From a virus (taxonomy: Duplodnaviria > Caudoviricetes): a DNA stretch of 64,000 bases. Positions 23,673-59,975 of this stretch are shown here, piece by piece. The notes beneath the pieces were generated by a model. That model worked only from the letters and a program-made list of their open reading frames with translations, was not told the origin of the DNA and made no database searches. Made by a program: the position numbers and the translations under genes. Where the stretch lies: positions 32,001 through 96,000 of the IMG/VR virus record IMGVR_UViG_3300031993_000010; one strand, written 5' to 3'. Position 1 is the first letter of the stretch, and the number at the start of each line of letters is the position of its first letter.

Positions 23673-26600
23673 ATGAAATCGGAATCAAGTGCAACATATA
23701 TTTTCTCCAAGGGTAAAGACGGTGTTTGGGCTGTGCTTGCGGCACGTCGTAAGGATAAGGGTGACGATGACTTCGGCGGATTGTGGAATGTACCTATAGG
23801 GGGTCGGGAAAAGGATGAAACCACGCTTGACACTGCCGTTAGGGAAACAAAGGAAGAATCGGGGATTGAAATACCGAAATCCGATTTCATTTCCGTTGGC
23901 GATTCTTGTTATTTCGAGAATGGTGAGAAACATATGTTTTCCAATTTTGTTGTAATAATGAAGGAGAAAGTTAATCCTGGTAAGGGTGACGGCGAAAACA
24001 GCAAGTTCAAATGGATACCGATGGCAGAGATTGACAAGCATAAGTGGGCATTTGGAATGGACAACACTGTTGCCAATGTTTTTGACTTTGTTGTAAAGGC
24101 AATTGAAAAAAGTGGAAAGGAACAACTTAACGAATACCTTGACAAGAATTATATGATGCCGTTGAAACAGTTCATGAATATGACGGACGAGGAAAAGGCT
24201 TGGGAATGTGCGGGCAGGTGTCCATGGCTGCTTACAGATTTCATTGAATCGTCTGAAATGGGTGAAAAGGTGGATGAACTTATAGAGAAGGGGGAATTGC
24301 CTAATGACTTGTTTGATTTGGAGAGTTATGAAATAGCCGAATATATTGGTCCGTTATTCAAAACCACGTTTTCGAAATATGCCGAAGATTTTGTCCAATA
24401 TGTTTACCGATACGGGGACACCGATGTTCCATTGTTTTGTGCGGCGGACTTTGTGAAAGAAATACACAACGAATGGCTTGTCCACATGACGGATAATCTA
24501 AGGGGTGTGAACCATGAAGGGTTCAGTTATGGCGTTGAAATGGAAGACCTTGCATATACCCCTGGTAGAGGCACAATAAAATACAAGTACGGTCCGGGAT
24601 ACAATTTTGCATTTGAGGCTGATGATGCCGATACCGCTGAAGGAAGTGGCTATGGCAAATATTGCATTTTATTTCAGGCGAGTGGTGTTGAGATATACCA
24701 TTATGGAGACGAACAGCATCAAGTCATATTCTATGGTCCGTCAGCAAAGAACCTTATATTCATAGTTCGTGCCGATGATTATAGTGACTATTCAGGTATG
24801 TGGTGTGTATTGGATGAAAAGGCAAGCGGATATGACAAATACCTGTGTCATTTCGACCGTCTTCAAGATGCTGTTTATTGGGCAATTAAAAACTTCCCGC
24901 AATACATGAGTCGTTTTATTGGAAAATCACAACAGAAAAATTTTGAGAGGAACAGGAATAAACCAAAAGAACAGAGATGGTGGCTTTCTGAGAACAAGGG
25001 TAGGACAATTGTATTGACTGAGAGTCAATTAAAATTAATAAACGAGAAGATGGACGTGTCACCTGACAAGTTCAATTCAAATATACGCTATTTTCTTCAT
25101 CAGTTGATTTCAGACCCTGTCAACGCACAACCCCCGACAGCACTGAAAGCTGTGGGTATAACACGTTCCAAACTCATCAACCTTTTAATAAAAAGAGGAA
25201 TAATAGAGAAACACGAGAAATTGAACGACAAGGATAAAGACGGTAATTTCAAGACCGCAACCATGAAAGTGTCGTTCACTGTCAAGGACAAGGTACCCGA
25301 TGAACTTGAATATAGGGTTCCCAAGAATGACTTCGACAGGAAGATAGAGAAATTGAGAAGAGAGATATTTGAGAAGAATGTTCCGACCAAAGCTGCTGAG
25401 GTGTACAACCGACAGTTGAGCGAGGATGGTGAAGGAATGGGCGGCGCTACGTCAGCAGCATCATCAGGGGCGTTTATTCAGCCAATAGGCGTTGCCATCG
25501 GGAGAAAGATAGATGAAGAAGTTGACGAATTGGAAGCAAAACATTCTTCAGGTGCAGATTTTGATAAATTCGATTCTGAGTACATGGGCAAAGGATGTGG
25601 TTCACAAGTATATGGTTGGGGGTATTATGTGACAACCGATAAGGAAACTGCAAAAGGATATGAAGATTATTTCAAAGATAATCCAACATACAAGATAGGT
25701 AGTACAAAAAGTGGTTCTTACACATATACCGTTGAAATCCCCGATGATAACGACGGCAATTATATCCTGTGGGACGGAAAACCTTTGGACAAGATTCCGT
25801 TCAGTAAAAATTTTGAGACATTTGGTGAACAGTACCAAAAACTTGCAAGTCTGACTAGTCCTAAGGAAGTCAGCATGATGCTGTCGAACATGGGTTATAC
25901 AGGGATAAAAACCACCCCGTTCAGAAATCAGAAAAAAACGGACGACCATCTCAATTTCAGCAGTGGTGCAAATTATGTTGTGTTTAAGGATGACGATTTG
26001 AAGATTCTGAAAAAGAAAGCACACACCAAGAAAGCAGATAAATACGGAGACTGGTATGTAATAGAGGATAGAGGTGGAATAGGTAATTTGTATAACCCTT
26101 CAACGAACCATTATTTTTTCGGTACTGAAGATAAATCCACATGGCCGCACGTACACCGTTTTTCAGATGAACCGAACATAGTAGGTATAACATTCCAAAA
26201 CCCTGACGGAGTGGCAGCAAATTTCATAGATGTTAAATCGATGAAATTGTTTTATCCCGAAACTGATGTGGAAAAGTGGCCATCTATGGTGACACTTCCG
26301 TTTGCATCTAATGCTAAATTTTACATAGTAAGGGATGATAACACAGCAAAGGTAATTCCTCTTGAACGTTTTACAAAAACCCCATTGTTTGGTAATTTTA
26401 ATGATGTCTCAACATGGGCGGATGACTACGGTAGCACGTCTGATGGGAAATTTACGGATTTCGAGATGGAAGATGGGTCACATATACACATGGACAAGAA
26501 CGGAAAGATAATTAATGGTGCTACAGGAAAAGAGGAAATGTCCAAACCCTTGCTCGAAAAGAAAAAGACGATAATTGTTACAGAGGAACAGATGGAGAAA

Positions 26601-26735
26601 ATCAGAGAGGTAACAACAACCGTGTCAGTAGGTGATTATCAATACGATGTTCCGTTAGGTGTTGATAATGAGGATGAAACAATGCAACGTCATAACGGTG
26701 AGGGTGGTTCGGTGTCAATAAATCACGTAAAATAA
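23673..26735 (+). CDS. Polyvalent (multi-effector) internal head protein: Nudix hydrolase, ADP-ribosyltransferase-like domain(s) and unknown domains
   Basis: Nudix box GGREKDETTLDTAVRETKEESG; ART-PolyVal-like HSSGADFDKFD...GWGYYVT...GYTGIK...YVVF; linkers with LNE/LSE/INE/LLE. Confidence 0.7.
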   Translation: MKSESSATYIFSKGKDGVWAVLAARRKDKGDDDFGGLWNVPIGGREKDETTLDTAVRETKEESGIEIPKSDFISVGDSCYFENGEKHMFSNFVVIMKEKVNPGKGDGENSKFKWIPMAEIDKHKWAFGMDNTVANVFDFVVKAIEKSGKEQLNEYLDKNYMMPLKQFMNMTDEEKAWECAGRCPWLLTDFIESSEMGEKVDELIEKGELPNDLFDLESYEIAEYIGPLFKTTFSKYAEDFVQYVYRYGDTDVPLFCAADFVKEIHNEWLVHMTDNLRGVNHEGFSYGVEMEDLAYTPGRGTIKYKYGPGYNFAFEADDADTAEGSGYGKYCILFQASGVEIYHYGDEQHQVIFYGPSAKNLIFIVRADDYSDYSGMWCVLDEKASGYDKYLCHFDRLQDAVYWAIKNFPQYMSRFIGKSQQKNFERNRNKPKEQRWWLSENKGRTIVLTESQLKLINEKMDVSPDKFNSNIRYFLHQLISDPVNAQPPTALKAVGITRSKLINLLIKRGIIEKHEKLNDKDKDGNFKTATMKVSFTVKDKVPDELEYRVPKNDFDRKIEKLRREIFEKNVPTKAAEVYNRQLSEDGEGMGGATSAASSGAFIQPIGVAIGRKIDEEVDELEAKHSSGADFDKFDSEYMGKGCGSQVYGWGYYVTTDKETAKGYEDYFKDNPTYKIGSTKSGSYTYTVEIPDDNDGNYILWDGKPLDKIPFSKNFETFGEQYQKLASLTSPKEVSMMLSNMGYTGIKTTPFRNQKKTDDHLNFSSGANYVVFKDDDLKILKKKAHTKKADKYGDWYVIEDRGGIGNLYNPSTNHYFFGTEDKSTWPHVHRFSDEPNIVGITFQNPDGVAANFIDVKSMKLFYPETDVEKWPSMVTLPFASNAKFYIVRDDNTAKVIPLERFTKTPLFGNFNDVSTWADDYGSTSDGKFTDFEMEDGSHIHMDKNGKIINGATGKEEMSKPLLEKKKTIIVTEEQMEKIREVTTTVSVGDYQYDVPLGVDNEDETMQRHNGEGGSVSINHVK

Positions 26736-32918: not shown

Positions 32919-32957
32919 TTTGGACATACAAAAACTTTATTTTACTTTTGCAAACGT
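32919..32957 (+). promoter_or_regulatory. Class A (early, host primary sigma) promoter TTTG-N20-TACTTTTG-CAAACGT
   Basis: Matches the Bacteroides -33/-7 consensus; five copies share the CAAACGT extension. Confidence 0.8.
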
Positions 32958-32981
32958 TATTCAAAATAAGCATTGATTACC

Positions 32982-33584
32982 ATGAAAGAAAATTTAAGGT
33001 TCCTTGTGGATGTGGACGATGTCCTGAGAGGCCTATGCCAAACCATGCTTAATGTCTACAACAAGGAGTTCGATGACAACAAGAAGGATGAGGACGTGAA
33101 GGTGTACTTCGTCAATGTCTCATATCCAAAGGTGGTTGAAAGATACGGCGACGCCACGAAGTGGTTTTTCCAGACACATGGACATGAACTCTTCTATGGC
33201 AGTGATGCTCTGAAGGGTGCGGCTGAAGCGATTAAGATATTGCGTGAGTATGGAACGGTACAGATAGTCACCAAACAGAGAAGCATTGAGAATAAGATAG
33301 ACACCCTTAAATGGTTCGACAAGGTTGGAATTGAATATGACAGCATTTCGTTTGTCAAGGACAAATCGGTTGTTTGCTGTGACTTCTTCATTGACGATTA
33401 CCATGAAAACTTCATCAACTGCGGCGGAGACGGTGCCGTTGGCATCATTATCAACCGCCCGTATAATGAGAATGTGGACTTGGAGGAATTGAGGGCAAAA
33501 ACCAATTTTTCCAAGATAATAAGATATGACAGTATCTTGGATTTTGCGAACGATTTGAAAAACGGTAACTTTAAAATAAACTAA
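32982..33584 (+). CDS. 5'(3')-deoxyribonucleotidase (NT5C, HAD superfamily)
   Basis: VDVDDVL, IVT, DKSVVCCDFFIDD, RPYN. Confidence 0.85.
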   Translation: MKENLRFLVDVDDVLRGLCQTMLNVYNKEFDDNKKDEDVKVYFVNVSYPKVVERYGDATKWFFQTHGHELFYGSDALKGAAEAIKILREYGTVQIVTKQRSIENKIDTLKWFDKVGIEYDSISFVKDKSVVCCDFFIDDYHENFINCGGDGAVGIIINRPYNENVDLEELRAKTNFSKIIRYDSILDFANDLKNGNFKIN

Positions 33585-33595
33585 AAATATTACAT

Positions 33596-35734
33596 ATGAA
33601 CGAATTGATTAATGAAACCGAAGAAATTAAACAAAAAAAACTGTTACTAAAAAACGCTGAACAAATCCTTAAACAGGAATTTGTCGGTATTGACAACGTG
33701 ATAGAGGGAACCCTCCTTAACATGCGCCCCTGGTTTCTATATCCTGAGTTACAGGACAAACCGCTTGTCATTTCGCTTTTTGGTATGACAGGTTCGGGAA
33801 AAACATCACTTGTCAGGCGCATTCTCCAATTGCTCGATATTGAGACCGATATGGTCTATTTCAACTTTGCCGAAATTGGTGAAATGAAATCGTGGGAGAT
33901 TGAGGATACCCTTGATGAACAGATTTCAAGTGAGAAAACCAACAGGGTTTTTGTCTACGACGAATTTCAATATGCTGCAACCCTCGACTCCCACGGTGAG
34001 GAGAAGGACAACAAGAGTGGCTTGAAACCGTTTTGGGAACTTCTCGACACGGGTATCATACACAAAAGGACATCACGCTTTGATATACAGGTTGTCAAAC
34101 GCATGATAGACTATATGACAAGAATTGACAGGCGCCACCCAATTGAATTGAAGAATGGTGTTTGGCAGAATGCTATAGATTGTCTGAATGGAGTGTCTTT
34201 GTATGACATGGGTCGTTTTCAAACATATTTTGAACTCAACCTTCCGCAAGACATAAAAGATGAAATGAATGGTCATCGGAACGGTGAAGGGGAATTCCCA
34301 TGCATAGACGATTATAACGAATCATCCGCAAAACCCACCAAGTGTAATGTGGTTGACGATGGACCGTTCTTCATCAGGGACAGTTACATGAACCGTATCC
34401 ATGAACTGTACGAGAGAATCAAACCCGGTATTGACAGAATTGACCTCCACAACGAGATGACGAAAATGAATTTCCCTGAGTTGTGTTCCTTCCTGCAGGG
34501 TATAATCAAGGAATCCGAAAAGGGGTATGACATGAACTTCAACGATTCAATCGTCTTTGTTCTTGCAAACATAGACGAAGCCTATCAGATAAGTTTCAAC
34601 GTGAACCCCGATATGCTTCCCGACCAATTCCACAAGATAACCGAAAAACTCACGATTGTCGATATCAAGGAGGCATTGAGACACAGGTTCAGAAATGAAC
34701 AGATTGCACGTCTCGGAAACCTGTTCATGATTTATCCATCCTTTTCGGAGGAATCCTTCAGAAAAATCATCGACCTGCAACTCAACAAGTACAGAAACGA
34801 TGTCCTTGAGAAGTGGGGTTTGAACATTGAGTTCGACCAAACAATAAAAGACTTTATATATACCGACTCTGTCTTTCCGACACACGGCACACGCCCAATT
34901 ATATCGGCAGTCCATGAAATCGTGAAGACAAAGTTGCCTTTAATTGTCGACAACCTCAATGAGAACGATATACACTGTGCTGAAAAGATTGTGTATTCAT
35001 ATGAAGACAATTCGGTGGTGATAAAGACATACTGTGGCGGTGAAGAGGTTAACTCGTTTCCAACAAAGACCATTTCCCGTTTGAACAGTCACAGGGGGCT
35101 GAAAGGTAAGAACGAGCAGACCTTGATTGCGACGCACGAAAGCGGGCATTTTATAATGTATGTCAAACTTTTCGGCAGGTTGCCTGAAAAAGTGTGTTCA
35201 TCCACCGTATCGAAAGACGCTGCAGGCTTTATGTTGGAGGATAGCGATGAAAGCGACAAACTCCACACCAAGGAAGACCTTCTTAACGTGATAAAGGTTT
35301 GTTTGGGTGGTTATGTAGCCGAAGGACTTGTATTCGGTGAGAACAAACGCTCGTCGGGTGCGTCACAAGACTTGAAGTCGGCTACAATAACAGCGTCGGA
35401 TATTGTAAGGAAATTCGGAATGACGGATTACGCCTTTGTTTCAACATATCTTGTCACAAGCGAAGCTACATCAGCGGGGTCTTATGTTCGTGAAGACAGT
35501 CAAATCCATTATAATGAGCTTATAAAGAACATTATCAAAGACTGTTTGGATGACGTGAAACACACCCTCATGGATGAGGATTGGAAAAAGATGTTCAAGG
35601 GTTCAGCAAAATATCTGTCAGAGAACGTCAATATGCCAAAGGAAAAGATGGCTGAACTCTACGACTTGGTACCTGATGAAAAGAAAGTTGTATACAATGA
35701 GAACTACTATAGCGAAAAACTTGAGTCATTCTGA
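33596..35734 (+). CDS. Soluble AAA+ ATPase (ClpB/ClpX-D2-like) fused to an FtsH-type M41 zinc protease
   Basis: FVGIDNV; Walker A GMTGSGKT; Walker B VFVYDE; RFRNEQIARLG; sensor HGTRPI; M41 motifs HESGH, LGGYVAE, SSGASQDL; no TM segment. Confidence 0.8.
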   Translation: MNELINETEEIKQKKLLLKNAEQILKQEFVGIDNVIEGTLLNMRPWFLYPELQDKPLVISLFGMTGSGKTSLVRRILQLLDIETDMVYFNFAEIGEMKSWEIEDTLDEQISSEKTNRVFVYDEFQYAATLDSHGEEKDNKSGLKPFWELLDTGIIHKRTSRFDIQVVKRMIDYMTRIDRRHPIELKNGVWQNAIDCLNGVSLYDMGRFQTYFELNLPQDIKDEMNGHRNGEGEFPCIDDYNESSAKPTKCNVVDDGPFFIRDSYMNRIHELYERIKPGIDRIDLHNEMTKMNFPELCSFLQGIIKESEKGYDMNFNDSIVFVLANIDEAYQISFNVNPDMLPDQFHKITEKLTIVDIKEALRHRFRNEQIARLGNLFMIYPSFSEESFRKIIDLQLNKYRNDVLEKWGLNIEFDQTIKDFIYTDSVFPTHGTRPIISAVHEIVKTKLPLIVDNLNENDIHCAEKIVYSYEDNSVVIKTYCGGEEVNSFPTKTISRLNSHRGLKGKNEQTLIATHESGHFIMYVKLFGRLPEKVCSSTVSKDAAGFMLEDSDESDKLHTKEDLLNVIKVCLGGYVAEGLVFGENKRSSGASQDLKSATITASDIVRKFGMTDYAFVSTYLVTSEATSAGSYVREDSQIHYNELIKNIIKDCLDDVKHTLMDEDWKKMFKGSAKYLSENVNMPKEKMAELYDLVPDEKKVVYNENYYSEKLESF

Positions 35735-35796
35735 CACAGGAAAGGTGTCATACTGACAAAATGTCATGAAAAAAATGACATGGTATGAAAGTTGCA
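35732..35796 (+). promoter_or_regulatory. Putative sigma54 (-24/-12) promoter with upstream TGACA/TGTCA inverted repeats, in front of dnaK
   Basis: TGGTATGAAAGTTGCA (GG 35782-83, N10, GC 35794-95); TGACAC-N7-GTGTCA, TGACA-N3-TGTCA and TGTCAT-N7-ATGACA upstream. Confidence 0.6.
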
Positions 35797-35841: not shown

Positions 35842-37764
35842 ATGAGCAAAAAAGCAATTGGAATTGACCTTGGGAGCACTGCGTCAGAAGTCGCTGTGTT
35901 TGAACACACTAAACCCGTTGTAATCTTCAATGAAGAGGGGTCGAACATGACACCGTCAGTTGTATCATTCAAGGACGGTGAAAGAAAAGTTGGTGCAACC
36001 GCCAAACGACAGATGATTGTTTACCCGAAGGAGACCGTCAACCTTATCAAACGTTTTATGGGTGCGACATATGCCGAATCGAAAGAGGCTATTAGTCATG
36101 TACTCTATGACGTTGTTGACAAAGATGGACAGCCCCGTGTTAAAATTGGTGACAAACTTTATTCACCTGAAGAAATCTCCGCCATCATTTTGGGCGCGCT
36201 CAAAAAGAACGCCGAGTCATATCTTGGTGAGGAGGTGACGGATGCGGTTATAACCGTACCTGCATTCTTCTCGGACAACGCAAGGGCGGCAACCAAGAAA
36301 GCGGGTGAGATGGCAGGTCTTAATGTTCTCCGTGTGATTGCCGAGCCGACCGCAGCCATACTTTCCTCAAACATTGACATGAAGAAAGGCGGAAAATATA
36401 TGGTTACTGACTTTGGTGGTTCAACTCTTGACAATTCCGTTGCGGATATTTGTGACGGTGTGGTTGAAATACTTGCCACTAACGGAGATGTTTATCTTGG
36501 TGGTTCCGATATAGACAAAGAGGTGGCAAAATGGATTGTCGACGAATACCGCAAGCAAAGCAGTATAGACCTCAATGGTGACTCACAGGCAATGTCACGT
36601 GTTATTGAGGCTGCCGAAAAGGCCAAGATAGAACTCAGTTCTTCCGCCACGGCTGAAATAAGCATCCCTTATATTACAGTGAAGGGCAACGTTCCCCAAC
36701 ACCTTACGATGCAGTTGACAAAGAGTAACTTTGAACGTCTTATCACACCCATTGTCGACAAACTCATCAATTGTGCAAAGAAAGCGGTTGAGAGTGCAGC
36801 CATTAAAAGTTCCGACCTCGACGGTATTCTGCTTGTTGGCGGTTCGTGCCGTATCCCACTCGTTCAGGAACGTCTGACCAAGGAGTTCGGTGTTCAACTG
36901 ATTAAGTCGAGCAACCTTGACCTCGCTGTTGCTGAAGGCGCTGCAATTCAAGCCAACACCCTTATTGGCGGTGAAGGGGCAAACGAAATACTTCTGCTCG
37001 ATGTTACTCCTATGAACTACAGTATTGAAACCGAAGGTGGTGTTGCGACAACACTTATCGAGTCCAATACCACAATACCATGCAAGAAGTCACAGATATT
37101 CAGCACTGCTGTAGACAATCAGCCCGCTGTTACAATCCACGTCTTGAATGGCTTGCGCCCAATGGCAAAGGATAACAAGACCGTCGGAATGTTCACATTG
37201 GACGGTATCATGCCCGCCCGTCGTGGAGTGCCGCAGATTGAGGTGACATTCGACATTGATGCCAACAGTATCCTGACCGTTACAGCGAAAGACCTTGGAA
37301 CCAACAAGGAACAGCATATCACGATAGAGAACAAGGGTAAACTCTCCGACGAGGAAGTGGAGAGATACAAAGCCGAGGCAAAAGCCTATGAAGAGGAGGA
37401 CAAAAAGAAGAAAGAGGCTGCTGAGAGGGCAAACAAGGCAGAATCCCTTGCATATCAGACAGAACAGCAACTCGACAACTTCAAGGACAACGAGAAGTTC
37501 ACCCAAGAAGACAAAGACTTCTTCAACGGTAAGGTTGAGGAGTTGAAGAAGATGAAGGAGGATGGAAACTATGACCGTCTTGACGACATTGAGAAGGAAA
37601 TGCAGACACGTTGGTTTGAGATAAGTTCCAAGTTGTATGGGAAACAGGAGAACGGAGGTGCAGGGGTTGACCCGAACATGTTTAAGGACATGTTTAATGG
37701 GGGGGCGCCGAATGGAACTGCCCAACCAACCGAGGAAGACCTGGATAATCAGGAAGTGAGTTAA
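35842..37764 (+). CDS. dnaK: Hsp70 chaperone DnaK
   Basis: IGIDLG, TPSVV, AVITVPAFF, EPTAA, LVGGS.RIP, LLLDVTP, GVPQIEVTFDIDAN. Confidence 0.97.
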   Translation: MSKKAIGIDLGSTASEVAVFEHTKPVVIFNEEGSNMTPSVVSFKDGERKVGATAKRQMIVYPKETVNLIKRFMGATYAESKEAISHVLYDVVDKDGQPRVKIGDKLYSPEEISAIILGALKKNAESYLGEEVTDAVITVPAFFSDNARAATKKAGEMAGLNVLRVIAEPTAAILSSNIDMKKGGKYMVTDFGGSTLDNSVADICDGVVEILATNGDVYLGGSDIDKEVAKWIVDEYRKQSSIDLNGDSQAMSRVIEAAEKAKIELSSSATAEISIPYITVKGNVPQHLTMQLTKSNFERLITPIVDKLINCAKKAVESAAIKSSDLDGILLVGGSCRIPLVQERLTKEFGVQLIKSSNLDLAVAEGAAIQANTLIGGEGANEILLLDVTPMNYSIETEGGVATTLIESNTTIPCKKSQIFSTAVDNQPAVTIHVLNGLRPMAKDNKTVGMFTLDGIMPARRGVPQIEVTFDIDANSILTVTAKDLGTNKEQHITIENKGKLSDEEVERYKAEAKAYEEEDKKKKEAAERANKAESLAYQTEQQLDNFKDNEKFTQEDKDFFNGKVEELKKMKEDGNYDRLDDIEKEMQTRWFEISSKLYGKQENGGAGVDPNMFKDMFNGGAPNGTAQPTEEDLDNQEVS

Positions 37765-37784
37765 TCTTTCAAGATAAGAGACTG

Positions 37785-37827
37785 ATGACAGCCGAGTTCA
37801 AATATTCGGCTGTCATTAAGTTTTTTT
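37785..37827 (+). terminator. Terminator after dnaK
   Basis: atgacagccga...tcggctgtcat hairpin with a downstream T run. Confidence 0.75.
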
Positions 37828-37839
37828 AAGAAAAGAAAT

Positions 37840-37877
37840 TTTGGCGAAACAAAAAAGGTTCTTACCTTTGCAAACGT
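37840..37877 (+). promoter_or_regulatory. Class A promoter TTTG-N19-TACCTTTG-CAAACGT
   Basis: Bacteroides consensus, upstream of dnaJ. Confidence 0.8.
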
Positions 37878-37907: not shown

Positions 37908-39035
37908 ATGCCTAACAAAGACTACTATCAAATTTTGGGGTTAACCGAGGAAGACAAAAAACTTCAGGGTGACGAGTTTGCGAAAAAATTGAAGACAAAC
38001 TATAGAAATTTATGTAAGCAATTTCATCCTGATAAATTTGCCAATGCAAGCGAAGAAGAGAGAAAGAAAGCCGAGGAGAAGTTCAAGGAAATTTCGGAGG
38101 CTTACGATGTACTCTCCAACCCTGAGAAGAAAGCAAGATATGAACAGACGGGTTCTTACGACGGGTTCTCGTTTGAGGGATTCGGTAATACAGGTATGGC
38201 TGACATAGACGAGATGTTGAACCGTTTCCGTCACGGTTTTAATCCTTTTGGAGGTGGCTTCAGTGGTTTTGGTGGAGGTTTTCAAAGAACTGTACAGAAA
38301 CCTAACCCCATGAAGATAAAACTCTCCATTACAGTGGAGGAGGCGTACAGCAAAGCCACGAAACGTGTAAGATACAAACGTTTCAAACCCTGCAGTTCCT
38401 GTGAGGGTAAGGGTTATGGCGAGAACGGCAAGACCGAGGTTTGCCCTGTGTGTGGCGGCACGGGTAATGAGATTAAGACAAGTACCAACGGGTGGATGAC
38501 ACGGCAGAAGATAAGCCCCTGTCATAACTGCCACGGCAGCGGTCAGATATTGTCCAATCCGTGCCACAAGTGTAATGGAAGCGGTCGTGTGGTTGATATG
38601 GAGGAGTTATCCATTGACATACCCGACGGTGCAAATAACGGCACATATATTGTAGTGGAGGGCAAGGGTCATTGTGCGGAGAGAAATCCTTCAGTATACG
38701 GTGATTTGCTCGTGTTTTTCGAAATCAACGGTAATGGCAAGTATGAGATAACCGAAAACGGTGGTTTGGTGGTGAAGACCAAGATTCCGATTTTGGACTG
38801 TATAACAGGTTGTGACACAGACATAACTTTACCTAACAATGAGAATGTTAAAGTTAAGATACCAATGGGGTCACAGACAGGAGACTATGTTGAGGTGAGG
38901 GGCAAGGGAATGCCGATACCGAACGGACGTGGCACCTTGTATGTTGTGGTTGAACAGACGTTTCCAAAATCACTGTCCTCTACAGAGGAAAAGACAATAA
39001 AGGAACTTAAAAACAGTAAAAACTTTAAAAAATAA
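37908..39035 (+). CDS. dnaJ: Hsp40 co-chaperone DnaJ (class A)
   Basis: KDYYQILG, HPD, G/F region, four CxxCxGxG repeats, C-terminal domain. Confidence 0.95.
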   Translation: MPNKDYYQILGLTEEDKKLQGDEFAKKLKTNYRNLCKQFHPDKFANASEEERKKAEEKFKEISEAYDVLSNPEKKARYEQTGSYDGFSFEGFGNTGMADIDEMLNRFRHGFNPFGGGFSGFGGGFQRTVQKPNPMKIKLSITVEEAYSKATKRVRYKRFKPCSSCEGKGYGENGKTEVCPVCGGTGNEIKTSTNGWMTRQKISPCHNCHGSGQILSNPCHKCNGSGRVVDMEELSIDIPDGANNGTYIVVEGKGHCAERNPSVYGDLLVFFEINGNGKYEITENGGLVVKTKIPILDCITGCDTDITLPNNENVKVKIPMGSQTGDYVEVRGKGMPIPNGRGTLYVVVEQTFPKSLSSTEEKTIKELKNSKNFKK

Positions 39036-40027: not shown

Positions 40028-40570
40028 ATGGCAAAAAACAAGAACAAGAACAACGGAATCAAAGAACCTCGTGTAAACGATGAATTGAAAGGCGACTATT
40101 CAGTACGTCTGATATACACGAATGAAAATGGAGAAAATGTCAATGAGATTTGCCCTCTATGGAAGGCAAAAAACAAGGCACGGGCACTTGAATTGGATTT
40201 GATTGAAATATCGCCTACCGCACAACCACCCGTGCTGAAAATCGGTGACTACTCAAAACACCTTTATGAGTTGAAGAAACAAGCGAAGGCAAAGAAACAG
40301 AACAGGACTGAGTTGAAGGAGATACCGCTTTCGGTGAACATATCAACCCACGACCTTGAGATAAAGGCTAAGAAGGCCAGGGAGTTCATAGAAAAAGGTG
40401 ATAAGGTGAAAGTTACCTTGATGATGAAACGACGTGAAATGGAAAGACGTGAAATGTCAAAGAAACCGTTGTTGGAGTTTATAGTGATGCTGAACGACGT
40501 TGCCGTTCCCGAATCAATGCCAAAGGATGAAGGAAACAAATCCATAGTAATACTTAAAAGAAAGTCATGA
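40028..40570 (+). CDS. infC: Translation initiation factor IF-3
   Basis: PRVND, VRLI, LDLIEISPTAQPPVLKIGDYSK, ISTHDLEIK, GDKVKVT. Confidence 0.93.
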   Translation: MAKNKNKNNGIKEPRVNDELKGDYSVRLIYTNENGENVNEICPLWKAKNKARALELDLIEISPTAQPPVLKIGDYSKHLYELKKQAKAKKQNRTELKEIPLSVNISTHDLEIKAKKAREFIEKGDKVKVTLMMKRREMERREMSKKPLLEFIVMLNDVAVPESMPKDEGNKSIVILKRKS

Positions 40571-41463
40571 AGAATAAGTTTTACACCGACTGCAATTCTA
40601 CCAAGTCCCTTTACCTGACTGACGACGAATTCGCCACACAATATTTTGAAGGGGTCAGAAGGACAAGGGTTTTATCCCCAAAGGAACAAAGGGATTTAAT
40701 CTACATTTCACGTCACGCTTGCAAGGAAGAGGCTGACAGGGCTAAAAGCATCCTTATTGAGTCAAACCAACGCTTTGTCGCCTCGATAGCCAAGCATGTT
40801 GGCAGGAAGGAGAATTTCACCGACCTTGTAAGTGAGGGCAACATAGGGTTGCTGAAGGCGATTGAGAACTACAACCTGTCTTTCAATCAGACTTTCATCA
40901 CATATGCCCAATTTTGGATTAGAAAATACATGATGGACTATATGGTGTCTGTTGAACCCACCATAAAACCGAAAAACGCAAACAAGGTCAACGCATATGT
41001 GGACAAGGCGGTAAACGAGTTTTTCCTCAAGAACGGAAGAAACCCGTCACCCGAGGAACTGCAGGATTTCCTGAAAGAGAAGGGTATTGTCTTTTCCAAG
41101 ACCGACGACCTGCGACAGATAACGGTGTCCTTCATTGACGAGTTTGACAATGACGACGATGAGAAATACAACGCAGGGCTGTCTTCCAACTACAACATGC
41201 AGACAAGCACGAATAACGTGGAGGAGATGATAGAGACAAGCCATATACAGGATTGGGTGAAAAGTATTTTCAGCATACTTGATGATGATGAGATTAGAAT
41301 CCTGAAACTGCTGTACGGATTCAATGGTGAGACGGAGAGTGTGGAACGTGTGGCGTTTCTGACAGGTAAAAAAGAGAAGGAAATCAAAAAGATAAAAGAT
41401 AACGCAATAAAGAAAATAAAGAAAAAATTATTAAAAGATGGCAAGGACGAAACTTACTTTTAA
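40567..41463 (+). CDS. Phage-encoded sigma70-family sigma factor (no. 2)
   Basis: LIESNQRFVASIAK, DLVSEGNIGLLKAIE, FITYAQFWIR, region 3 GRNPSPEEL; degenerate region 4 HTH. Confidence 0.88.
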   Translation: MKNKFYTDCNSTKSLYLTDDEFATQYFEGVRRTRVLSPKEQRDLIYISRHACKEEADRAKSILIESNQRFVASIAKHVGRKENFTDLVSEGNIGLLKAIENYNLSFNQTFITYAQFWIRKYMMDYMVSVEPTIKPKNANKVNAYVDKAVNEFFLKNGRNPSPEELQDFLKEKGIVFSKTDDLRQITVSFIDEFDNDDDEKYNAGLSSNYNMQTSTNNVEEMIETSHIQDWVKSIFSILDDDEIRILKLLYGFNGETESVERVAFLTGKKEKEIKKIKDNAIKKIKKKLLKDGKDETYF

Positions 41464-58550: not shown

Positions 58551-59975
58551 ATGACAATAACAGAATATAAGGAAATAATAACATATCTAAAAGGTTGCAT
58601 ACAGGGTAGCGACTTTGAAAACCACACGTTTGTTGTGGGAGGTGCGGTACGTGATTTTTTAATGTACAACCCTATCAAGGATATTGACCTTGTGATTGAC
58701 ATTCCTGACGGAGGTTTGAAGTTCGCCGAATGGATGAAGGAACAGGGATATACGGTCGGAAGTGTGGTTACATACCCGACATACGGCACGGCAATGTTCA
58801 AACTTGCTGCATACCCCGACATTGAATTGGAATGTGTGCAGACGAGGGGAGAACAGTACCACGACAAGAACAGCAGAAACCCTGAAACCTGTTTCGCAAC
58901 CATCAAGGAAGATGCTTTCAGGAGAGACTTGACAATCAATGCAGTGTACCACAATGTAAGCACAGGTGAAATTCTTGACATCACAGGCAAAAGCCTTGAC
59001 GACATCAAGAATCACGTGATACGGTGCGCAAACGACAACCCAGACGTGGTGTTTATGGACGACCCTTTGAGAAATATGAGGGTGTGCAGGTTTTCAGCCC
59101 GTTATGGTTGGAAGATAGAGAAAGAGACGTACATGTCCATGATACGTAATGTTGCCCGTCTCGAGATAATCACCAAGGAACGCATACAAGACGAACTGAT
59201 GAAAATACTCACCTGTAAGAATCCTGTGATGGGACTTGAGGAATTGGAGGATATGGGTGCGTTGGAGTATGTGATTCCAGAACTTGAGGAAACGGTTGGA
59301 ATGGAACAGAACAAATACCATTTTGGCGATGTGTGGGAACACACTCTCAGGGTTGTGGAGAACGCAAGCAAGATGGCGGTTGAGAACGATTATGACAAAC
59401 AAGTGCTGATGATGGCAGCGTTACTGCATGACATTGGAAAGATAAAGACCCGTTCCGAGAAAGACGGAAAAGTACATTTCCTGTTCCACGAAGTCGAGGG
59501 GGCGAAACTTGCCGAGGGGATAATGAGAAGGCTGAAATTCAGCAACGATTTCATTTCCAAGGTTTCATTCCTTGTAAGGGAACACATGAGATTCAAAAGT
59601 TTTGGTGATGAAGTACCGTCTGACAAGGCATTGAGGAAATTCCAGTATCTCTGCAAGGACAAGGAACTTTTCAAACTCTGTGTCTATCTGATACATGCCG
59701 ACAATACAGCACATGCCGAGGAATACTGTCTACCAAACCAATGCAGGAAAATACTCGAGCGTTCGGAGGAACTTGAGAAATACGGTGAATCCATGTTCGG
59801 GTACAAACTACCTATAAACGGATTTGACATCATGAAAATCAGGGGAATAGACAGTGGACCTGATATAAAGAAGTGTCAGGATTATCTGATAAAGTTGGCA
59901 TACAACGGAGTCGGCAAACTTGACAAGACAAGGTGCATACAGATGGTAAAAAGTTTCAACCCGCAAAAAAGTTAG
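58551..59975 (+). CDS. cca: CCA-adding tRNA nucleotidyltransferase with HD domain
   Basis: VGGAVRD, DIDL, DAFRRDLTIN, DDPLR, ERIQDEL, HTL...LLHDIGK. Confidence 0.92.
   Translation: MTITEYKEIITYLKGCIQGSDFENHTFVVGGAVRDFLMYNPIKDIDLVIDIPDGGLKFAEWMKEQGYTVGSVVTYPTYGTAMFKLAAYPDIELECVQTRGEQYHDKNSRNPETCFATIKEDAFRRDLTINAVYHNVSTGEILDITGKSLDDIKNHVIRCANDNPDVVFMDDPLRNMRVCRFSARYGWKIEKETYMSMIRNVARLEIITKERIQDELMKILTCKNPVMGLEELEDMGALEYVIPELEETVGMEQNKYHFGDVWEHTLRVVENASKMAVENDYDKQVLMMAALLHDIGKIKTRSEKDGKVHFLFHEVEGAKLAEGIMRRLKFSNDFISKVSFLVREHMRFKSFGDEVPSDKALRKFQYLCKDKELFKLCVYLIHADNTAHAEEYCLPNQCRKILERSEELEKYGESMFGYKLPINGFDIMKIRGIDSGPDIKKCQDYLIKLAYNGVGKLDKTRCIQMVKSFNPQKS

Follow-up and report, generated by a model that had tools for sequence, protein, structure and literature searches.

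The window, the whole 64,000-nucleotide stretch of DNA that was analysed, belongs to a 227-kb viral contig that is 62% complete. It contains a gene that joins a ClpB-D2-type ATPase to an M41 peptidase, preceded by a nucleotidase gene and followed by dnaK and dnaJ. The features of this region, together with those referred to later, are as follows.

32919..32950, + strand: predicted Bacteroidota sigma-A-type promoter (-33 TTTG / -7 TAnnTTTG), a consensus match
32973..33584, + strand: 5'-nucleotidase (NT5C) gene, stopping 11 nt before the protease start
33596..35734, + strand: ClpB-D2/M41 fusion protease gene, 712 aa
33617..34066, + strand: AAA+ large domain, first half (aa 8-157), with Walker A K69 and Walker B D122/E123
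33875..33904, + strand: putative position (aa 94-103) at which pore loop 1 has been lost, with 13 residues fewer than ClpB/C D2
aa 126-140 of the fusion: lengthened pore-2 hairpin, partly conserved (T129 86%, E136 91%)
34067..34519, + strand: helical insertion domain of about 150 aa (158-308), at the tip of the pre-sensor-1 hairpin
34520..34738, + strand: AAA+ large domain, second half (aa 309-381), with sensor-1 N325 and Arg finger R372
34739..35080, + strand: ClpB-D2-type small domain (aa 382-495), with sensor-2 R433 and a C-terminal beta sheet
35093..35695, + strand: M41 zinc peptidase (aa 500-700), with H514, E515, H518 and third ligand D592
35732..35796, + strand: predicted dnaK control region, TGACA/TGTCA inverted repeats and a sigma-54-like GG-N10-GC
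35842..37764, + strand: dnaK, 108 nt after the protease gene
37783-37818: terminator after dnaK
37840-37870: predicted sigma-A-type promoter of dnaJ
37908..39035, + strand: dnaJ
40028-40570: IF3 gene
40567-41463: sigma-70 factor gene
58551-59975: CCA/poly(A)-polymerase-family gene

All the motifs quoted in the initial annotation (FVGIDNV, GMTGSGKT, HESGH and the others) were found in the 712-aa reading frame. Pfam assigned M41 to aa 505-660 (68.3 bits, cut-off 29.9) and ClpB_D2-small to aa 384-447 (30.8 bits, cut-off 21.9). In NCBIfam, the ClpB model covered aa 310-475 and the FtsH model just aa 504-661; the TIGR01241 (FtsH) score was 61.8 bits, from the peptidase part only, against a family cut-off of 600. 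Matches to solved structures were divided likewise between the ATPase part and the M41 part. The N-domain, D1 and M-domain are absent, the single ATPase domain beginning near residue 8. The 68 residues preceding the Walker A lysine contain no hydrophobic segment, and the hydropathy scan revealed no transmembrane anchor (the top 19-residue value, 1.59, was at aa 562 within the M41 domain). The protein is thus predicted to be soluble, as first described.

An assembly chimera was ruled out, since a goat-gut contig about 88% identical carries the fusion gene and dnaK unbroken. We found 816 homologs, and among the matches listed the top ones were all full-length. No longer full-length fusions were detected (matches at 16-26% coverage only). 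K69, D122/E123, N325, R372, R433, H514/E515/H518, E576 and D592 were invariant in 93 of 93 homologs, and the catalytic residues were kept in 48-49 of 49 dereplicated phage members; family-wide, twelve catalytic residues are near-invariant. The M41 zinc site, reported as intact in the initial annotation, is therefore so by both residue conservation and Pfam score. The conservation of the catalytic residues makes it very probable that the zinc protease is active and is coupled to an ATPase that is active too. Activity as a protease and ATPase is far better supported than any particular role.

The AlphaFold model of the fusion had a pLDDT of 75.9. Its residues 8-376 superposed on the D2 domains of ClpA/ClpB/ClpC with an rmsd of about 3 A (Z 13-14), and residues 502-702 on the FtsH/AFG3L2 peptidase with an rmsd of 2.4-2.9 A; for the FtsH protease domain 2di4, the value was 2.4 A over 167 residues. 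Rigid structural matches separate into M41 and Clp D2. Searching with the whole protein (Foldseek/VIA) put FtsH first, a ranking that we rejected because the two domains sum, at an rmsd of 10-21 A. Prediction of a two-copy ATPase complex scored 0.00 and carries no evidential weight.

The origin of the ATPase was assayed with a family profile made with the insertion removed and compared to reference AAA+ domains. It aligned end to end with ClpB/ClpC D2 (44-62 bits), partially with Lon (17-25 bits, first half only), and scored 7-10 bits against ClpX/HslU and at most 0.5 bits against five FtsH ATPase domains. In a tree with references from five Bacteroidota genomes only, the family was sister to ClpB/C D2 (UFBoot 97), within a Clp/HslU/Lon clade (98). 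The pre-sensor-1 hairpin, Arg finger, sensor-2 Arg and D2-small domain, all D2-type features, are kept. Profile scores and tree both indicate that the ATPase is derived from ClpB/ClpC D2 and is not that of FtsH. The Clp-D2-type assignment of the initial annotation thus holds, the ATPase not clustering with ordinary FtsH, and the same two results rule out an ordinary FtsH devoid of its anchor.

Two loops of Clp ATPases are altered in the family. The distance from Walker A to Walker B is 53 residues, compared to 66 in ClpB/C D2, and the gap spans the GYVG segment. In two counts, 3 of 155 members and 4 of 129 members had the aromatic-x-Gly motif, which was present in all Clp/HslU/Lon/FtsH controls. 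Alignments thus indicate that pore loop 1 (GYVG) is deleted family-wide, which calls ordinary Clp-style unfolding into question. The initial annotation mentions neither this deletion nor how common the family is in bacterial chromosomes. The IGF/IGL docking motif was present in 1 of 164 family members, compared to all ClpC and 4/5 ClpX controls; at the ClpX/ClpC IGF-loop position lies an acidic segment (aa 327-345) in which D327, D339 and D343 are conserved at 95-99%. The phage encodes its own ClpP (G000:C1:161643-162170, - strand, 266 bits), outside the window and distant from the fusion gene. The fusion is unlikely to be its partner, since it has no IGF loop.

The insertion lies in the pre-sensor-1 hairpin, starting some 35 positions beyond Walker B, and aligns with the position of the ClpX RKH loop. 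In ClpX, this loop faces substrate entry. Folded alone, the insertion gave a pLDDT of 88.6 and a pTM of 0.81. It is the least conserved region of the protein (0.20), with a length of 73-168 aa across the family. No clear match was found in the PDB (best VIA Z 5.2, none with Foldseek at E <=0.001), and the sole good match in the Atlas was the fusion family itself; this lack of fold matches is no proof of a new fold. The insertion had been placed after Walker B with a length of about 170 aa, and proposed as a substrate or adaptor domain. Its presence there is verified, its length is closer to 150 aa, and its placement at the substrate-entry loop position of ClpX would suit the proposed role. A short-insert subfamily (L117, L210, L214, L223) from deep-branching phages and a few bacteria has an insert of 73-100 aa, with an acidic/basic linker and no beta hairpin.

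A protein identical to the fusion is also encoded on a 364,702-bp contig. Using the Bacteroidota sigma-A-type promoter consensus from PMC6847099, we detected 59 sites in the phage genome, compared to 2-8 in shuffles. Among sequencing runs, the best match, possibly the source, was a bovine gut metagenome. The 227-kb contig is accordingly taken to be from a jumbo phage, most likely with a Bacteroidota host. It carries an array of 28 tRNA calls and a permuted tmRNA (G000:C1:107351-120904). Neither a WYL gene nor GrpE was found in the 62%-complete contig. At window positions 23673-26735, a 1020-aa protein has an N-terminal NUDIX domain and about 880 residues without assignment.

The promoter at 32919..32950 likely drives both the nucleotidase and the protease genes, which are probably co-transcribed. 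Early expression, as originally suggested, is plausible through this candidate promoter. The gene does lie upstream of dnaK-dnaJ, as had been stated, but the predicted signals suggest that here protease, dnaK and dnaJ belong to three separate transcription units. The inverted-repeat/sigma-54-like element before dnaK is also present in the related phages L158, L159 and L163, and is absent in L160-L162 and L166, where another gene precedes dnaK. Neighbourhood conservation was found within the rumen clade of this phage, with dnaK no more than 8 kb from the gene in 7 of 12 IMG/VR loci, and in L001 and L002, which carry the dnaK-dnaJ block; it was not found outside, dnaK being beside the fusion gene in 0 of 66 other viral loci and 0 of 77 bacterial loci. 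Phage neighbours of the gene vary by lineage. In one phage group of 360-400 kb, about 25 contigs (L177-L203, L211, L215, L231) have the family gene in constant surroundings, with an IMPDH/GMP-reductase gene nearby and no dnaK.

A profile search of clusters built at 50% identity gave 985 representatives with E <=1e-30. IMG/VR contributed 158 matches, many on contigs of 200-550 kb and from several phage lineages, and GTDB 229, of which those fetched were mostly from Bacteroidota and related phyla. A phage-only invention is ruled out by this bacterial distribution. Cultured carriers include Mongoliitalea (M. lutea, WP_189585259.1), Aquiflexum, Chryseolinea and Mangrovibacterium. At least 9 of 400 sampled Bacteroidota genomes have the gene (about 2%; two candidates scored per genome), as do 5 of 40 relatives of one carrier. 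Canonical FtsH, ClpB, ClpX and Lon were all present in 5/5 tested carriers, so that the fusion gene is accessory in bacteria. Phage and bacterial labels on the family tree require at least 2 changes. Three trees place the bacteria nested within phage lineages; the AU test fails to reject a phage clade (p 0.14), the outgroup is long, the 77 GTDB loci were picked by similarity to the query, and the root is insecure. Contigs of this phage clade have been binned in bacterial MAGs, including Prevotella sp. CAG:1092 (L001, L002, L003). Some 2.5 kb separate a distant phage-like homolog (P0155, L156:1499-1987) from a 2H phosphoesterase that weakly matches Acb1 (anti-CBASS).

Bacterial neighbourhoods were analysed in these 77 GTDB loci. 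A WYL-WCX regulator is near the fusion gene in 39 of them, and in 25 of these 39 it is one or two genes upstream on the same strand. The palindrome CGACA-N5-TGKCG was found just upstream in 30/39 WYL-linked loci, compared to 4/38 other loci and 2/77 downstream controls. WYL regulators are known to co-localise with defence islands (PMC9122601) and to sense ssDNA (PMC11662680). This operator was not found upstream of phage fusion genes; two intergenic matches to its consensus elsewhere on the phage contig (G000:C1:122822 and 121278), one of them about 80 nt before an ORF, may be due to chance. Other recurring bacterial neighbours are DUF2779/Cas4-like, GmrSD, McrBC and DEDDh exonuclease genes. 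RtcB is next to the fusion gene, which follows it, in 8 loci that all belong to a single bacterial subclade; an RF-1-domain (PrfH-like) gene lies between the two in L059 and probably in L074. With PADLOC (2023 model set), the family itself gave weak N-terminal P-loop matches only (DolB, 17-26 bits). Scans of the bacterial neighbours gave scattered matches that had no control and were not counted as enrichment.

We tentatively favour, at a little under even chances, a ring-forming, ATP-dependent, substrate-selective soluble protease in which the insert selects, feeding through pore-2 is weak, and which the phage uses against chosen host proteins. The enzyme is a single chain, predicted to be cytosolic, in which the second ATPase domain of ClpB/ClpC is fused to an FtsH-type M41 peptidase. 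Formation of YME1L hexamers is driven by the membrane anchor (PMC5095350), so that a soluble M41 needs another assembly unit. The subunits would form a ring, since the fusion keeps the Arg finger and sensor-2, which work between neighbouring subunits, and this ring would take over from the anchor that holds FtsH together. The acidic segment at the IGF-loop position may dock the ATPase on its own M41 ring, and the insert would cap the entry face and pick substrates. ATP hydrolysis would then pass these through the lengthened pore-2 hairpin to the zinc sites. Unfolding power would probably be weak, so that only selected or already loosened proteins would be degraded. In the phage, expression from the host-type promoter would probably be early, and the targets may be particular host proteins (regulators, defence or stress-response proteins), as proposed from distribution and genomic context. 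DnaK/DnaJ would not be required partners: many unrelated large phages keep the family without dnaK. The main point against a translocating protease is the absence of pore loop 1, on which threading by Clp ATPases depends; Torsins, which also lack it, were judged unlikely to thread (PMC4999309).

That deletion could instead mean that the protein does not translocate substrates at all. It might be a nucleotide-gated switch protease: once a trigger, be it damaged nucleic acid or a protein of phage or host, is bound by the insert, ATP-driven assembly would activate M41 to make limited cuts in one or a few targets. Such an enzyme could be a WYL-controlled defence or stress effector in bacteria and a repurposed counter-measure in phages. 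The similarity to non-threading Torsins, which also gave a weak match in the domain search, is consistent with this, as are the fast-evolving, sensor-like insert and the bacterial context of WYL, operator and defence nucleases. However, the fusion retains the Arg finger, sensor-1, sensor-2 and the Walker B glutamate, unlike Torsins, which are not known to have an Arg finger. Moreover, its pore-2 hairpin is lengthened and partly conserved at T129 and E136, PADLOC models gave the family only weak P-loop matches, and the WYL gene is missing from about half of the bacterial loci. We consider a switch of this kind unlikely.

If the motor does thread but pulls weakly, help might come from chaperones, DnaK/DnaJ unfolding or delivering substrates as part of a phage proteostasis module. 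The initial annotation had put forward such a machine. A motor devoid of pore loop 1 could use this help, dnaK is close to the gene in the rumen clade and in L001 and L002, and L161, L162 and L166 have no evident intergenic promoter before dnaK, which would allow co-transcription. Nevertheless, dnaK adjoins the gene in none of the other viral or bacterial loci, and the three genes seem to be separately transcribed in this genome. The fusion also has no ClpB M-domain, the element of ClpB that binds DnaK. An obligate DnaK module is ruled out by distribution; supply by DnaK/DnaJ as the defining function is not borne out, the link being limited to the rumen clade and dnaK and dnaJ having their own predicted promoters, and we regard the proteostasis module as distinctly improbable. 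Weak pulling would also suffice for clearing truncated nascent chains from damaged or stalled ribosomes, as these are unfolded and require little force. The RtcB and PrfH-like neighbours in bacteria fit such a translation-rescue protease, as do the tmRNA, 28 tRNA calls, IF3 and CCA-type nucleotidyltransferase of the phage. Nonetheless, the RtcB link is limited to one subclade, and the phage also encodes ClpP, a usual route for tmRNA-tagged chains; this role seems very unlikely.

On the features tested, the fusion fails membership of FtsH, ClpB/C, ClpX/HslU and Lon. FtsH/YME1/AFG3L2 (MEROPS M41) share with it the M41 peptidase with HEXXH and third-ligand Asp and the ATPase-then-peptidase order in one chain, but the membrane anchor, classic-clade AAA and FVG pore motif of FtsH are all missing from the fusion. 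NBD2 of ClpB/ClpC/ClpA is the closest source of the motor, with D2-small, sensor-2 Arg and pre-sensor-1 hairpin in common; the fusion differs in having no N-domain, D1, M-domain, GYVG loop or IGF loop, and in adding the hairpin domain of about 150 aa and its own peptidase. The best analogue in layout is Lon, a soluble single chain with a same-clade ATPase fused to a peptidase, but Lon has a Ser-Lys peptidase and the Lon N-domain whereas the fusion has a zinc M41 and neither of these. HslU and ClpX resemble it by their single ATPase ring, inserted substrate-side element (I-domain, RKH loop) and long pore-2 loop. Their peptidases, however, are separate proteins, and in HslU the Walker A and B motifs flank the I-domain (distance 147-209, compared to 53) whereas the fusion insert comes after Walker B. 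Torsins are likewise ClpB-D2-like ATPases without pore loop 1 (PMC4999309); the fusion differs in keeping the Arg finger and in being cytosolic and fused to a protease.

The family is a variant of ATP-dependent protease not described in the literature searched, from which subscription papers were mostly outside the scope. Searching with both Pfam names retrieved no paper; this architecture does not appear in publications on jumbo phages and the mobilome, which mention unnamed ATPase-protease fusions as well as ClpP, ClpA, ClpX and DnaK/DnaJ. Members are at present hidden in databases behind FtsH or hypothetical labels. The family shows that a Clp-clade motor can be recombined with the FtsH peptidase in a single soluble enzyme, which hundreds of sequence clusters retain. 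Since the gripping loop is gone and every catalytic residue is retained, the fusion allows a direct test of whether the peptidase of a AAA+ protease can still be fed when pore loop 1 is missing. Expression should be easy for a soluble single chain with homologs in cultured Bacteroidota, and its substrates could reveal host proteins removed by uncultured jumbo phages. A broader reading, possible though rather doubtful, is that of a separate ATP-dependent protease family beside Clp, HslUV, Lon, FtsH and the proteasome: devoid of pore loop 1, with a new-fold cap as swappable sensor or selector, it may have been assembled in large phages as a host-takeover protease and later become a WYL-controlled stress or defence effector in Bacteroidota.

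The ESM Atlas contains further fusions of M41 and Clp-type domains, 787-874 aa long in Campylobacterota and 1292 aa long in Bdellovibrionota, a sign that recombination between Clp and M41 may have happened repeatedly.
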